This document shows positions 40,146 to 44,412 of a stretch of 64,000 bases of DNA, piece after piece. Made by a program: the position numbers and the translations under genes. Source of the stretch: Escherichia coli (lineage in GTDB: Bacteria; Pseudomonadota; Gammaproteobacteria; Enterobacterales; Enterobacteriaceae); NCBI RefSeq assembly GCF_003018255.1, contig NZ_CP027440.1; one strand, written 5' to 3'. The notes under the pieces are model-generated. The model had not been told where the DNA came from and made no database searches. It saw only the letters and a list, made by a program, of their open reading frames with translations. The stretch's first letter is position 1, and each line of letters starts with the position of its first letter.

Positions 40146-40160
40146 TTCCTCTGAATTATG

Positions 40161-40192
40161 AAAAGCCATCCAGATTTGGATGGTTTTTTTTT
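40161..40192 (+). terminator. Rho-independent terminator after rlmB
   Basis: Hairpin ccatcca-gatt-tggatgg followed by 9-nt T-tract. Confidence 0.8.
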
Positions 40193-40271: not shown

Positions 40272-40673
40272 ATGACATGGAATCCGTTGGCGCTGGCGAC
40301 GGCGCTGCAAACTGTACCTGAACAAAATATTGATGTAACAAATAGCGAGAACGCATTAATTATTAAAATGAATGATTATGGCGATTTGCAAATCAATATT
40401 CTATTTACTTCCCGCCAAATGATTATCGAAACCTTTATTTGTCCGGTAAGTAGTATCAGCAATCCAGATGAATTTAATACCTTCTTATTAAGAAATCAGA
40501 AGATGATGCCGTTGTCATCGGTAGGGATCTCCAGCGTGCAACATGAAGAGTATTACATTGTTTTCGGTGCGTTATCGCTTAAATCTTCTCTTGAAGATAT
40601 CCTGCTTGAGATAACCTCGCTGGTAGATAACGCATTGGATCTGGCTGAAATTACAGAAGAATATTCACACTAA
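40272..40673 (+). CDS. yjfI: Uncharacterised protein YjfI (DUF2170)
   Basis: ORF track 133 aa. Confidence 0.85.
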   Translation: MTWNPLALATALQTVPEQNIDVTNSENALIIKMNDYGDLQINILFTSRQMIIETFICPVSSISNPDEFNTFLLRNQKMMPLSSVGISSVQHEEYYIVFGALSLKSSLEDILLEITSLVDNALDLAEITEEYSH

Positions 40674-40691
40674 TTACAAGGACGGGTATTT

Positions 40692-41390
40692 ATGGGAATT
40701 TTAAAAAGTTTATTTACGCTGGGGAAATCGTTTATCTCCCAGGCGGAAGAATCCATTGAAGAAACCCAGGGCGTGCGCATGCTGGAACAGCATATTCGTG
40801 ACGCTAAAGCTGAACTCGATAAAGCCGGAAAATCTCGCGTTGATCTGCTGGCGCGGGTGAAATTAAGTCACGATAAGCTGAAAGATTTACGTGAGCGCAA
40901 AGCCAGTCTGGAAGCTCGTGCGCTGGAAGCGTTAAGCAAGAACGTTAATCCGTCGTTGATTAACGAAGTTGCTGAAGAAATCGCGCGCCTTGAGAATCTC
41001 ATTACCGCTGAAGAGCAAGTGTTGTCGAATCTGGAAGTCTCTCGTGATGGCGTGGAAAAAGCAGTTACAGCGACAGCGCAGCGTATCGCTCAGTTTGAGC
41101 AGCAAATGGAAGTCGTTAAAGCTACTGAAGCCATGCAGCGTGCACAACAGGCTGTAACGACCTCTACTGTTGGCGCATCTTCCAGCGTTTCGACAGCGGC
41201 AGAATCCTTAAAACGCCTGCAAACGCGTCAGGCCGAACGTCAGGCTCGCCTGGATGCTGCCGCACAGTTGGAAAAAGTCGCAGACGGTCGCGATCTTGAT
41301 GAAAAGCTGGCGGAAGCCGGAATTGGCGGTAGCAATAAAAGTAGCGCCCAGGATGTATTAGCAAGACTGCAACGCCAACAGGGCGAGTAA
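40692..41390 (+). CDS. yjfJ: PspA/IM30-family protein YjfJ
   Basis: ORF track 232 aa; coiled-coil rich; recognised as YjfJ. Confidence 0.88.
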   Translation: MGILKSLFTLGKSFISQAEESIEETQGVRMLEQHIRDAKAELDKAGKSRVDLLARVKLSHDKLKDLRERKASLEARALEALSKNVNPSLINEVAEEIARLENLITAEEQVLSNLEVSRDGVEKAVTATAQRIAQFEQQMEVVKATEAMQRAQQAVTTSTVGASSSVSTAAESLKRLQTRQAERQARLDAAAQLEKVADGRDLDEKLAEAGIGGSNKSSAQDVLARLQRQQGE

Positions 41391-41439
41391 TTTTTTGCCA
41401 GCCTCACTGCAAGGCTGGCAACTATTTTAAGGATAAAAT

Positions 41440-42099
41440 ATGTCTGGTTTTTTCCAGCGTCTGTTTGGCAAGGATAATAAGCCTGCTATCGCTCGCGGTC
41501 CTCTGGGACTTCATCTCAATAGTGGCTTTACGCTCGACACGTTAGCGTTTCGTTTGCTGGAAGATGAATTGCTGATTGCGCTGCCGGGTGAGGAATTTAC
41601 GGTAGCCGCTGTCAGCCGCATCGATCTGGGCGGCGGTAGCCAGATTTTCCGCTACTACACTTCAGGCGATGAGTTTCTGCAAATCAATACCACTGGCGGC
41701 GAAGATATTGATGACATTGATGATATCAAGCTCTTTGTCTATGAAGAGAGCTACGGTATCAGTAAAGAGAGTCACTGGCGCGAGGCGATCAATGCCAAAG
41801 CGATGGGGGCAATGACCTTAAACTGGCAGGAAAAACGCTGGCAGCGATTTTTTAATAGCGAAGAACCGGGAAATATCGAACCCGTCTACATGCTGGAAAA
41901 AGTAGAAAATCAAAACCATGCTAAATGGGAGGTCCATAATTTTACCATGGGCTATCAACGGCAAGTGACCGAAGATACTTACGAATATCTGCTGTTAAAT
42001 GGTGAGGAATCTTTTAATGATCTCGGCGAGCCGGAGTGGTTATTTTCGCGCGCGCTGGGGGTCGATATCCCGCTGACATCACTTCATATTATTGGTTAA
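41440..42099 (+). CDS. yjfK: Uncharacterised protein YjfK (DUF2491)
   Basis: ORF track 219 aa. Confidence 0.85.
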   Translation: MSGFFQRLFGKDNKPAIARGPLGLHLNSGFTLDTLAFRLLEDELLIALPGEEFTVAAVSRIDLGGGSQIFRYYTSGDEFLQINTTGGEDIDDIDDIKLFVYEESYGISKESHWREAINAKAMGAMTLNWQEKRWQRFFNSEEPGNIEPVYMLEKVENQNHAKWEVHNFTMGYQRQVTEDTYEYLLLNGEESFNDLGEPEWLFSRALGVDIPLTSLHIIG

Positions 42100-42116
42100 T
42101 TACAAGGACGTTTACG

Positions 42117-42515
42117 ATGCATATACTGGATTCACTTCTTGCCTTTAGCGCTTATTTTTTTATTGGTGTGGCTATGGTGATTATTTTTCTGTTTATCTAC
42201 TCCAAAATTACACCGCACAACGAATGGCAGTTAATCAAAAATAATAACACCGCGGCGGCACTGGCGTTCAGCGGAACATTGTTGGGGTACGTGATCCCCT
42301 TATCCAGTGCGGCAATCAATGCGGTGAGTATTCCAGACTATTTCGCATGGGGCGGGATTGCTCTGGTGATTCAATTACTCGTTTTTGCTGGCGTCAGGCT
42401 TTATATGCCCGCATTAAGCGAAAAAATTATTAATCACAATACCGCAGCAGGAATGTTTATGGGAACCGCCGCGCTGGCTGGCGGTATTTTTAACGCAGCT
42501 TGTATGACATGGTAA
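42117..42515 (+). CDS. yjfL: Inner-membrane protein YjfL (DUF350)
   Basis: ORF track frame; start at ATG 42117 (MHILDSLLAFSAYFFIGVAMV), 132 aa. Confidence 0.85.
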   Translation: MHILDSLLAFSAYFFIGVAMVIIFLFIYSKITPHNEWQLIKNNNTAAALAFSGTLLGYVIPLSSAAINAVSIPDYFAWGGIALVIQLLVFAGVRLYMPALSEKIINHNTAAGMFMGTAALAGGIFNAACMTW

Positions 42516-42524
42516 TGGACGATC

Positions 42525-43163
42525 ATGGCCAGAAAACGCAAATCCAGAAATAACAAAAATATCGGATATGGGGCAATCAGTCGCATTGGTAGACCGCATA
42601 ATCCTTTTGAGCCGCGCCGCAATCGCTACGCACAAAAATACTTAACGTTGGCGCTAATGGGCGGTGCCGCTTTTTTCGTATTGAAAGGTTGTGGCGATAG
42701 TGGCGATGTCGATAACGACGGCGACGGAACGTTTTACGCGACTGTGCAGGATTGTATTGATGACGGTAATAATGCAGACATTTGCGCGCGTGGCTGGAAC
42801 AACGCCAAAGCGGCGTTTTATGCCGATGTTCCGAAGAATATGACTCAGCAGAATTGTCAGTCTAAGTACGAAAATTGCTACTACGACAATGTTGAACAGA
42901 GTTGGATCCCGGTCGTTTCTGGATTTTTGTTAAGCCGGGTTATTCGTAAAGATCGCGATGAGCCGTTCGTCTATAACAGCGGCGGATCCTCATTTGCTTC
43001 GCGCCCCGTCTGGCGCAACACTTCTGGTGATTACTCCTGGCGCTCCGGTTCTGGCAAAAAAGAGTCTTACTCTTCGGGCGGCTTTACCACCAAAAAAGCG
43101 TCAACCGTTTCTCGCGGCGGCTATGGTCGTTCTTCCAGCGCCCGTGGGCATTGGGGAGGCTAA
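42525..43163 (+). CDS. yjfM: Uncharacterised protein YjfM (DUF1190)
   Basis: ORF track 212 aa; N-terminal membrane anchor, Cys-rich segment. Confidence 0.85.
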   Translation: MARKRKSRNNKNIGYGAISRIGRPHNPFEPRRNRYAQKYLTLALMGGAAFFVLKGCGDSGDVDNDGDGTFYATVQDCIDDGNNADICARGWNNAKAAFYADVPKNMTQQNCQSKYENCYYDNVEQSWIPVVSGFLLSRVIRKDRDEPFVYNSGGSSFASRPVWRNTSGDYSWRSGSGKKESYSSGGFTTKKASTVSRGGYGRSSSARGHWGG

Positions 43164-43165
43164 TC

Positions 43166-44329
43166 ATGCTGAGACACAACGTTCCTGTGCGGCGGGATCT
43201 GGACCAGATCGCCGCTGACAACGGTTTCGACTTTCATATCATCGACAATGAAATCTATTGGGACGAGAGTCGAGCTTACCGTTTTACTCTGCGCCAGATT
43301 GAAGAGCAGATCGAAAAACCGACTGCGGAACTGCATCAGATGTGCCTTGAGGTGGTGGATCGCGCGGTTAAAGACGAAGAGATCCTGACGCAACTGGCGA
43401 TCCCGCCGTTGTACTGGGATGTGATCGCCGAAAGCTGGCGCGCACGCGATCCTTCGTTGTATGGCCGTATGGATTTTGCCTGGTGTGGTAATGCACCGGT
43501 TAAGTTGCTGGAGTACAACGCCGATACGCCAACTTCATTGTACGAGTCGGCTTATTTCCAGTGGTTGTGGCTGGAAGATGCCCGGCGCAGCGGCGTTATT
43601 CCGCGCGATGCCGATCAGTACAATGCCATTCAGGAGCGCCTGATTTCACGCTTTAGCGAGCTTTACAGTCGGGAACCGTTTTATTTTTGCTGCTGTCAGG
43701 ACACCGACGAAGACAGGAGTACCGTGCTGTACTTGCAGGACTGCGCCGAGCAGGCAGGGCAGGAGTCGCGGTTTATCTACATTGAAGATCTCGGTTTGGG
43801 CGTCGGCGGTGTGCTGACCGATCTTGATGATAATGTCATCCAGCGTGCATTTAAGCTGTATCCGCTGGAGTGGATGATGCGTGACGATAACGGTCCGCTG
43901 CTGCGCAAGCGTCGCGAGCAATGGGTGGAGCCGTTATGGAAAAGTATCTTGAGTAATAAAGGGCTAATGCCGCTGCTTTGGCGCTTCTTCCCTGGTCATC
44001 CTAACCTTCTTGCATCCTGGTTCGATGGTGAAAAACCGCAGATTGCCGCTGGCGAAAGCTATGTGCGTAAACCGATTTACTCGCGCGAAGGCGGAAACGT
44101 CACCATTTTCGACGGTCAGAATAACGTTGTTGACCACGCTGATGGTGATTACGCCGATGAACCGATGATCTACCAGGCGTTTCAACCTCTGCCGCGATTT
44201 GGCGATAGCTACACACTCATCGGTAGCTGGATTGTCGATGATGAAGCGTGCGGAATGGGGATCCGTGAAGATAACACGTTGATCACCAAAGACACCTCAC
44301 GTTTCGTTCCGCATTACATTGCTGGATAA
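43166..44329 (+). CDS. yjfC: Glutathionylspermidine-synthetase-like ATP-grasp protein YjfC
   Basis: ORF track frame; start at ATG 43166 (MLRHNVPVRRDLDQIAADNG), 387 aa. Confidence 0.88.
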   Translation: MLRHNVPVRRDLDQIAADNGFDFHIIDNEIYWDESRAYRFTLRQIEEQIEKPTAELHQMCLEVVDRAVKDEEILTQLAIPPLYWDVIAESWRARDPSLYGRMDFAWCGNAPVKLLEYNADTPTSLYESAYFQWLWLEDARRSGVIPRDADQYNAIQERLISRFSELYSREPFYFCCCQDTDEDRSTVLYLQDCAEQAGQESRFIYIEDLGLGVGGVLTDLDDNVIQRAFKLYPLEWMMRDDNGPLLRKRREQWVEPLWKSILSNKGLMPLLWRFFPGHPNLLASWFDGEKPQIAAGESYVRKPIYSREGGNVTIFDGQNNVVDHADGDYADEPMIYQAFQPLPRFGDSYTLIGSWIVDDEACGMGIREDNTLITKDTSRFVPHYIAG

Positions 44330-44412
44330 GAATGTTTTAGCAATCTCTTTCTGTCATGAATCCATGGCAGTGACCATACTAATGGTGACTGCCATTGATG
44401 GAGGGAGACACA

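Follow-up and report, generated by a model that had tools for sequence, protein, structure and literature searches.

We analyzed a 64,000-nt stretch of Escherichia coli DNA (RefSeq assembly GCF_003018255.1, contig NZ_CP027440.1; hereafter the window) that contains the six-gene cluster yjfIJKLMC at positions 40272-44329. The cluster is real, was correctly described in an initial annotation made from the sequence alone, and is already known. On balance, we favor the explanation that it encodes a modular system of inner-membrane and envelope homeostasis, in which a PspA-like arm is combined with a ligase module and which was ancestrally coupled to a K+ channel. Operons of this kind were described by Ravi et al. 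2024 (mSystems 9:e00847-23, PMC11237479); what is added here is a rule for the C-terminal tail of DUF1190 proteins, the family of YjfM, and a quantified modularity of the gene sets M-C and L-M-C, where single letters stand for the yjf genes and their homologues and Ch for the channel gene.

The cluster is part of the E. coli "unknome": it belongs to the core genome and is carried by essentially every strain, and one of its components has a solved structure and an in vitro activity, with its physiological role open. Membrane repair of the PspA/ESCRT-III type and polyamine chemistry each matter for envelope integrity, stress tolerance and antibiotic susceptibility, and ygiBC, a pair paralogous to yjfMC, sits in the tolC operon. 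The interest of the cluster lies in the open physiological role and in the DUF1190 tail rule, which names a specific, testable partner for the ligase.

In the scheme that we favor, YjfJ would bind and stabilize the stressed inner membrane through its N-terminal amphipathic helix, and YjfI, a CesT/Tir-like dimer, would serve as a dedicated chaperone or regulator of YjfJ, a partnership that we infer from the conserved adjacency of I and J. The second module would consist of YjfL (DUF350), YjfM (DUF1190; exported, rich in Cys and ending in a Gly-rich tail) and YjfC, which would use ATP to form an amide between spermidine and the carboxylate of a peptide. YjfK and, ancestrally, an RCK-type K+ channel are placed between the two modules. 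The proposed role is cation and charge homeostasis of the inner membrane and envelope under membrane stress. The PspA-like arm would seal or remodel the membrane. The ligase arm would join a polyamine to a peptide or to the end of a protein, and the conjugate would act in the periplasm or at the membrane, ancestrally in coordination with K+ flux. The choice of peptide, the involvement of K+ and the nature of the triggering stress are likewise conditional parts of this scheme. What is established is the identity of the genes and domains, the synteny with its modularity and, through published work, the in vitro activity and structure of YjfC, the joint expression of yjfIJKL and a genetic interaction of yjfMC/ygiBC with tolC.

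The six genes lie on the plus strand and fill 40272-44329 exactly in the list of open reading frames (ORFs). yjfI (40272-40673) encodes a cytoplasmic DUF2170 protein of 133 aa with a CesT/Tir-chaperone-like fold, yjfJ (40692-41390) a 232-aa member of the PspA/IM30 (bacterial ESCRT-III-like) family, yjfK (41440-42099) a DUF2491 protein of 219 aa that lacks a signal peptide and is predicted to be soluble, all-beta and barrel-like, yjfL (42117-42515) a small DUF350 inner-membrane protein of 132 aa, yjfM (42525-43163) a DUF1190 protein of 212 aa, and yjfC (43166-44329) an ATP-grasp peptide-spermidine ligase of 387 aa. The ATG at 42117 was taken as the yjfL start, as in the K-12 annotation, and the ATG at 43166 as the yjfC start, as in K-12 and PDB 7UK6; the mechanically called ORFs open at GTG 42036 and TTG 43151, respectively. 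Intergenic gaps from yjfI to yjfC measure 18, 49, 17, 9 and 2 nt, and the gene boundaries agree with those of K-12 b4181-b4186. The rnr-rlmB genes lie upstream and aidB downstream, with yjfI beginning 82 nt past the rlmB terminator hairpin. The initial annotation had placed six co-directional, closely packed genes after this terminator, and by the ORF list and a terminator scan its coordinates are correct to the base. Its six domain assignments were each matched by Pfam at E-values between 2.8e-17 and 6.7e-149 (YjfI DUF2170, 2.7e-44; YjfJ PspA_IM30, 5.9e-58; YjfK DUF2491, 8.7e-71; YjfL DUF350, 5.4e-34; YjfM DUF1190, 2.8e-17; YjfC GSP_synth, 6.7e-149). The 4.3-kb region is 100% identical to the chromosome of E. 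coli strain JNE23-011, and 5425 of 5426 complete E. coli genomes carry the cluster, with the gene names yjfI/J/K/L/M/C unchanged, at one fixed site flanked by rlmB and aidB.

For comparison with other species, loci were collected by a scan with a YjfC alignment, taking one genome per species and the best 80 of at least 593 loci; 86 loci were annotated with hidden Markov models (HMMs) built in this analysis. Conservation of the neighborhood, which the initial annotation had proposed as a check, proved well above chance: the order recurs, with or without a K+ channel gene, in Gammaproteobacteria and in one Desulfurivibrionaceae genome. The complete order I-J-(Ch)-K-L-M-C was present in at least 26 loci from Enterobacterales, Alteromonadales, Vibrionales, Oceanospirillales, Pseudomonas, Methylococcales, Chromatiales and one metagenome-assembled genome (MAG) of the Desulfurivibrionaceae, and the alphaproteobacterium Novispirillum carries a rearranged version. 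By arrangement, 34 of the 86 loci were M-C (the ygiBC type), 16 were I-J-Ch-K-L-M-C, 14 were L-M-C, 9 were I-J-K-L-M-C and 3 were Ch-L-M-C, with a few rearranged forms. Compared across these loci, the cluster reads as a set of nested modules in which M-C is followed by L-M-C, next by the channel and/or K, and last by I-J.

Hahella and Methylotuvimicrobium, whose YjfC homologues are 52-53% identical to that of E. coli, show the order DUF2170-PspA-K channel-DUF2491-DUF350-DUF1190-GSP_synth, which is the E. coli order with a channel gene (Ion_trans_2 + TrkA_N) placed after the PspA gene and before DUF2491. In Ferrimonas only DUF350-DUF1190-ligase is present, and in distant lineages the channel is also found with L-M-C. 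Within E. coli, a "potassium channel family protein" is annotated at the yjfJ-yjfK site in 19 of the 5426 complete genomes; in one E. coli assembly (L007) the 1071-bp channel gene (L007:3070-4140) lies between yjfJ and yjfK, and its ATG overlaps the yjfJ stop codon. At this site the window lineage has a 49-nt spacer (41391-41439) and no channel gene. Judged by gene order, the E. coli cluster is a reduced version of a seven-gene cluster. As a separate observation, 19 genomes fall in a 90-95% identity band for the whole cluster and may represent the same divergent lineage as the channel carriers.

The yjf cluster corresponds to the "third group" operons of Ravi et al., in which a CesT/Tir-PspA dyad is associated with a GspS-related ATP-grasp ligase, a K+ channel, DUF350, DUF1190 and DUF2491 (PMC11237479). 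We consider it the same system, because the cluster has the co-directional dyad together with the ATP-grasp, DUF350, DUF1190 and DUF2491 genes; it differs in that the window lineage lacks the described K+ channel, which the 19 other E. coli genomes keep. Ravi et al. labeled DUF1190 a "metal-chelating lipoprotein" and DUF2491 "predicted enzymatic", and proposed that PspA-based membrane dynamics are coupled to polyamine state, with PspA monitoring polyamines or the state of the membrane (PMC11237479). The idea of an envelope-stress and/or conjugation system, put forward in the initial annotation, agrees with this proposal and with the neighborhood survey; the initial interpretation as a whole is partly supported.

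The first arm of the proposed system is the dyad of YjfI and YjfJ, whose genes were present in 28 loci each in our HMM annotation and were always paired. YjfI belongs to Pfam family PF09938 and to the NCBIfam BacA model (E 1.3e-26), and its residues 3-128 match PDB 8Q8O ("DUF2170 family protein", P. aeruginosa BacA) at E 1.3e-16. The crystal structure of BacA is a CesT-like dimer (PMC10948618), and a CesT-like fold has been assigned to the DUF2170/YjfI family (PMC10948618, PMC11237479); homology to this solved CesT-like DUF2170 structure places YjfI in the CesT/Tir-like superfamily. YjfJ matches PF04012 over its full length (residues 2-232 on model positions 1-220 of 220, E 5.9e-58). Its N-terminal 18-residue windows (starts 1-8) have a hydrophobic moment (muH) of 0.39-0.50 versus a protein mean of 0.28, which is consistent with a membrane-binding amphipathic helix. 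A sequence search of the PDB with YjfJ gave no solved structure at E 0.01, and the published YjfJ 48-mer is a homology model at 20.6% identity (PMC12492005). NCBIfam matches of YjfJ to SMC, Rad50 and V-ATPase subunit I (E ~3e-3) were rejected as coiled-coil artefacts.

Two known systems resemble this arm. YjfJ resembles the PspA of the canonical Psp system (pspF-pspABCDE) in its full-length PspA_IM30 match and its amphipathic N-terminus, and would be expected to bind damaged inner membrane and stabilize it. The remaining features of the Psp regulon are absent: none of the six yjf genes encodes PspB, PspC or PspF, the partners being instead a CesT-like protein and a polyamine ligase module, and no sigma-54 promoter was found upstream. 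A scan of the whole window that allowed 3 mismatches was uninformative (299 sigma-54 matches versus 335 expected by chance), and in a targeted scan upstream of yjfI the best match had 7 of 11 consensus bases, lacked the -12 GC and was not convincing. The bacABCDEF operon of P. aeruginosa (BacA PA3732, BacB PA3731) is likewise a six-gene operon headed by a DUF2170 and PspA-like dyad. The BacA paper describes it as sigma-54 dependent, with no homologue of spermidine synthase inside the operon or nearby; biofilm phenotypes are documented for bac and not for yjf, and the paper leaves open how bac relates to the six-gene DUF2170-PspA operon type, asking for the two to be compared further (PMC10948618).

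The second arm is centered on YjfC. Its sequence is nearly the one crystallized as PDB 7UK6/7UK7, "putative acid-amine ligase YjfC" (E 2e-274), with 3 substitutions seen in the alignment; the paralog YgiC, solved as 7UK8/7UKA, is matched at E 1.5e-129 (7UK8). The RefSeq product name in K-12 is "peptide--spermidine ligase YjfC". YgiC is reported to have peptide-spermidine ligase activity with a physiological substrate that is not known (Pederick 2023, as described in PMC11762307), and the title of Pederick 2023, as cited there, extends the activity to YjfC. Since structures, an in vitro activity and a RefSeq name exist for YjfC, the statement in the initial annotation that the cluster has no assigned function is partly outdated; a structure has also been solved for the YjfI family, and the statement holds for the physiological role. 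YjfC has the ATP-grasp GSP_synth fold in common with glutathionylspermidine synthetase (Gss/GspS) and trypanothione synthetase, along with a chemistry that joins an ATP-activated carboxylate to spermidine. Unlike the bifunctional Gss/GspS, it comprises the synthetase region only, without the N-terminal amidase domain, and its score against the Gss model NF007801, 162.6 bits, is far below the cutoff of 882. YgiC was found to lack glutathionylspermidine synthetase activity (Sui 2012 as cited in PMC11762307), and YjfC is likewise reported to lack it and to be inactive with glutathione.

The ygiB-ygiC pair downstream of tolC offers a close comparison with yjfMC; it also joins a DUF1190 gene to an ATP-grasp gene. 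The two pairs overlap in function in a ΔtolC background, in which joint loss of YgiBC and YjfMC worsens the growth defect in minimal glucose medium. Unlike the yjf cluster, ygiBC has no DUF350, DUF2491, PspA or DUF2170 partners. The regulation of ygiB is by Cpx, which induces it. The two DUF1190 proteins differ at their N-termini, where YgiB has the LAGC of a classical lipoprotein and YjfM a long basic extension together with an atypical LKGC. YgiB is considered a lipoprotein of the outer membrane, and vesicle preparations of ΔtolA cells were found to contain it.

The main rival to a single modular system is the reading that the six genes, though neighbors, work as separate units, with yjfIJ(KL) as a spare Psp-like membrane-stress unit and yjfMC as a second copy of ygiBC with a polyamine-peptide role of its own; their proximity in E. 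coli would then carry no mechanistic significance. We regard it as somewhat unlikely. It gains from the loci in which M-C (34 of 86) or L-M-C (14 of 86) stands without I-J-K, which include the E. coli paralogs ygiBC. Mangrovibacter, Siccibacter and Providencia show L-M-C only: within ±9 kb of their yjfC orthologs (77%, 71% and 62% identity; L008, L068 and L009) only DUF350 and DUF1190 were found, so that certain relatives of E. coli have apparently lost yjfIJK or carry it elsewhere. The I-J dyad also occurs in very different company, as in the bac operon of P. aeruginosa, where it is combined with flotillin and AAA+ proteins (PMC11237479, PMC10948618). On the other hand, the full order is kept across many bacterial orders with gaps that are tiny or overlapping, which is hard to account for without selection for co-expression.

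Transcription bears on the same choice. The intrinsic terminator of rlmB lies at 40160-40192 on the plus strand (hairpin 40160-40189, T9 tract 40184-40192, from the terminator scan); its hairpin folds as RNA at -16.9 kcal/mol (z -4.1), and an A-tract pairs with 4 of the 9 T's in the predicted stem. The T9 tract is located at -89 to -81 relative to the yjfI ATG, as in K-12. Rychel et al. 2025 (PMC12492005) found that yjfIJKL forms an iModulon of its own, apparently silent under almost every condition in a compendium of 1000 samples and strongly up in strains evolved to grow at 45 °C, and ascribed the activation to the deletion of a single nucleotide in mutL hypermutators, 80 bp ahead of yjfI. 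The location of the T9 tract fits "80 bp upstream", so the deletion most likely shortens this homopolymer. Loss of one T leaves a shorter free U-tract, which suggests that transcription reading through from rnr-rlmB, and not a new promoter, would account for the activation. A sigma-70 scan gave no promoter-like site between the rlmB terminator and yjfI, and such sites were rarer in the region than in shuffled sequences (4 versus 8.7).

Within the cluster, a GC-rich hairpin lies in the 49-nt yjfJ-yjfK spacer at 41395-41421 on the plus strand (10-bp stem, -17.1 kcal/mol, z -3.1), followed by CUAUUUUAAG, and is possibly a partial terminator. A weaker terminator-like element at 42465-42485, inside the 3' end of yjfL, is no better than shuffles. 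Because of these two elements and because yjfMC is outside the iModulon, it is doubtful that the six genes form a single obligatory operon in E. coli. The single co-transcribed unit envisaged in the initial annotation is therefore in question: heat evolution co-regulated only yjfIJKL (PMC12492005), and M-C and L-M-C are free-standing elsewhere. Gene order across taxa argues for ancestral co-expression of the cluster.

Several of these observations weigh against the modular homeostasis system that we favor. The activating mutation raises only yjfIJKL in E. coli, the cluster is apparently silent in nearly all of the compendium (PMC12492005), a stable hairpin stands directly after yjfJ, and M-C or L-M-C occurs in many genomes without I-J-K. 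The channel has been lost in E. coli, so the K+ link is at best ancestral. Finally, the natural substrate of the ligase is not known, according to the description in PMC11762307.

A second alternative refines rather than excludes the modular homeostasis system and concerns the substrate itself. It holds that YjfC, and likewise YgiC, recognizes the DUF1190 protein whose gene immediately precedes its own by binding the conserved Gly-rich tail, and amidates the carboxylate of a tail glycine with spermidine before export, the product being an envelope (lipo)protein with a polyamine-tipped tail. We consider this proposal tentative and rather unlikely as it stands, and the features of YjfM that bear on it are as follows. 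In YjfM, a basic N-terminus and one transmembrane or lipobox-like segment (..FFVLKGC) are combined with four conserved Cys and a C-terminal tail rich in Gly; the protein also matches the NCBIfam YgiB model (E 1.2e-10). C77, C87, C111 and C118 are invariant in an alignment of orthologs. The tail (residues 194-212, T-V-SRGGYG-RSSSARGH-WGG-COOH) is encoded at 43104-43160 on the plus strand and ends ..TVSRGGYGRSSSARGHWGG, ..ARGHWGG. In enterobacterial YjfM proteins the N-terminal third is variable, and the last 19 residues (T-x-SRGG[YF]GRSSSARG[HS]WGG) are nearly invariant; the motif is retained in relatives at 23-30% overall identity. YgiB-type proteins share a tail of the form ..TRGGFG..SRSMGG-COOH, with the gene 2-12 nt upstream of that of the ligase (e.g. 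L052).

Tail statistics were calculated from 114 full-length DUF1190 representatives, clustered at <=50% identity. RGG[FYW]G occurs in the last 60 residues of 96 of them, and 91 end in Gly-Gly (50 in WGG, 15 in FGG) versus 4% expected from tail composition. The C-terminal tail is the best-conserved part of the DUF1190 family. Lipobox-type signal peptides are found in 68 of 77 locus-derived DUF1190 proteins and in 92 of the 114 representatives. Almost every ligase gene of the YjfC/YgiC type follows straight on the gene of such an exported protein: at least 76 pairs of a DUF1190 gene with a ligase gene next downstream were counted, usually 0-12 nt apart or overlapping, and GSP_synth is the next gene in 3 of 3 informative distant DUF1190 loci. 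Bradyrhizobium has an N-domain that the DUF1190 HMM misses; small ORFs ending ..SRGGFGSFAHAFGFGGG nevertheless lie between DUF350 and the ligase, so that tails of the form ..RGGFG..GGG-COOH precede the ligase even where the N-domain is undetectable. In Bradyrhizobium and a related MAG (L071:8215-8973, L078:3492-4235, L086:8399-8995), DUF1190 is unrecognizable and the end ..SRGGFG..F[GS]GG is retained; L071 has two such small tailed ORFs in tandem.

The chemistry fits the proposal, as the known reaction joins a peptide carboxylate to spermidine in the account of PMC11762307. We also modeled a fusion of YjfC, a 30-residue Gly/Ser linker and the last 24 residues of YjfM with AlphaFold2, using a 24-row paired alignment. 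GspS, a homologue of YjfC, uses the Gly carboxylate of glutathione. The predicted local distance difference test (pLDDT) score of the fusion was ~90 for the enzyme body, 30-46 for the linker and ~75 for ASTVSRGGYG, which was modeled as a short beta-strand, while the final nine residues scored <50. This single uncontrolled prediction, with per-residue confidence only, suggests a specific contact between YjfC and the SRGG[YF]G motif. It leaves the free C-terminus undocked, which counts against the tail as a substrate.

Topology also stands against modification of the tail. With lipoprotein or signal-anchor N-termini and four conserved Cys, the tail of DUF1190 proteins ends up in the periplasm, whereas YjfC needs ATP and has no signal peptide. 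Because the ATP-dependent ligase is cytoplasmic and the tail periplasmic, modification would have to precede export. In addition, some tails lack the final Gly-Gly and are still encoded beside the ligase, as in Pseudomonas, where DUF1190 tails end ..WGGGGSSS and the ligase neighbor is kept. A rule that a free Gly-Gly terminus is required was tried and is not supported, since tails ending SGS or SSS still adjoin GSP_synth. It is doubtful, then, that the tail is the substrate of the ligase; that it is a binding partner of the ligase in some form has a somewhat better chance. The widest version, in which ligases of the YjfC/YgiC type are dedicated tail modifiers that make polyamine-tipped envelope (lipo)proteins in coordination with the PspA-like arm and, ancestrally, with a K+ channel that polyamines might gate or block, is quite unlikely.

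RimK (acting on ribosomal protein S6), tubulin-tyrosine ligase and Pup/PafA may serve as analogies for such a reaction, as they are ATP-dependent carboxylate-amine ligases, each acting on the disordered C-terminal tail of one specific protein. Tails of Pup and of ubiquitin-like proteins end in Gly-Gly motifs. For RimK and tubulin-tyrosine ligase, no homology to YjfC is claimed beyond the ATP-grasp fold, and here the amine would be a polyamine and the proposed target an exported protein. If the DUF1190 tail is the partner of the ligase, the question of the YgiC/YjfC target becomes directly testable, and polyamine-tipped envelope proteins would be a previously undescribed post-translational modification; if not, what remains is an ordinary, already annotated conserved cluster.

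Three further observations concern YjfM. Residues 59-69 (window 42699-42731, GDVDNDGDGTF) carry an acidic D-N-x-G-D-G motif after the membrane anchor that is invariant in the enterobacterial YjfM clade, resembles the DxDxDG calcium-binding loop and is absent from the Hahella, Ferrimonas and Methylotuvimicrobium homologues. The lipobox Cys is lost in several YjfM orthologs (KGW, RGN, KSG), so the enterobacterial clade is probably signal-anchored rather than lipidated. Public E. coli "YjfM-YjfC fusion" proteins (474-601 aa; P0115-P0119, P0161 and P0166) were considered and set aside, as at least five of them (P0115, P0117, P0161, P0166 and P0053) are products of frameshifts inside the yjfM tail; the shifted frame (window 42958-43218) reads ..RFSRRLWSFFQRPWALGRLI into yjfC and destroys the conserved tail. 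P0116, of 601 aa and with 130 member sequences, is outside the five traced frameshifts.

A third explanation was offered by Rychel et al. 2025 (PMC12492005), who proposed that YjfJ, YjfK and YjfL form pores and raise membrane viscosity or export aggregates at high temperature, with YjfK as an outer-membrane porin, YjfL as a hexameric inner-membrane channel and YjfI as a periplasmic lipoprotein. It draws on the rise of yjfIJKL in all heat-evolved strains and on structural predictions from the same paper, and we find it very unlikely. The published placements of YjfK and YjfI are not supported: both proteins lack a signal peptide, and BacA, the solved homologue of YjfI, forms a soluble, chaperone-like CesT dimer. 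The predicted structure of YjfK (pLDDT 91.7) is a compact, soluble, all-beta, barrel-like fold whose nearest folds are cytosolic tunnel enzymes and not porins; a search of AFDB50 with this model returned only DUF2491 proteins, and a YjfK profile had no match among PDB sequences. The triphosphate tunnel metalloenzymes (CYTH/TTM) were considered as a candidate family for YjfK. The authors' own membrane predictors did not put YjfK in the membrane (PMC12492005), and the proposal ignores yjfMC and the conserved ligase and channel context.

Finally, an anti-phage defense system, to which the initial annotation had alluded and which the discovery of PspA as a phage-shock protein might recall, and an ordinary glutathionylspermidine synthetase, as the GSP_synth Pfam family of YjfC might imply, are both effectively excluded: a PADLOC scan of the six proteins gave only coiled-coil noise for YjfJ (weak matches to SMC-like JetC, 5e-4, and LmuB, 2e-3) and nothing for the other five, for which reason the defense reading was dropped, the cluster is core genome at its fixed rlmB-aidB site, and YjfC has neither the amidase domain nor the Gss score (163 bits against 882) nor, in the literature as cited by PMC11762307, the synthetase activity.

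Some minor features of the cluster are recorded here. The C-terminus of YjfL (window 42474-42512), a protein named "DUF350 domain-containing inner membrane protein" in K-12, is near-invariant among 47 DUF350 homologues (..G[IL]LNAACM[TS][YW]-COOH). The DUF2491 C-terminus (YjfK, window 42055-42096) has a final Gly in 17 of 27 homologues, and the C-termini of YjfJ, YjfI and YjfC are variable. YjfK was considered as a general substrate of the ligase and rejected; being absent from the M-C and L-M-C modules, it cannot be a general ligase partner. Downstream of the cluster, the yjfC-aidB intergenic region contains a strong hairpin at 44364-44396 (AUGGCAGUGACCAU...AUGGUGACUGCCAU). It is not a canonical terminator, because no U-tract follows it; the 71-nt stretch that includes it folds at -23 kcal/mol (z -3.9), and the hairpin may belong to the regulation of aidB.

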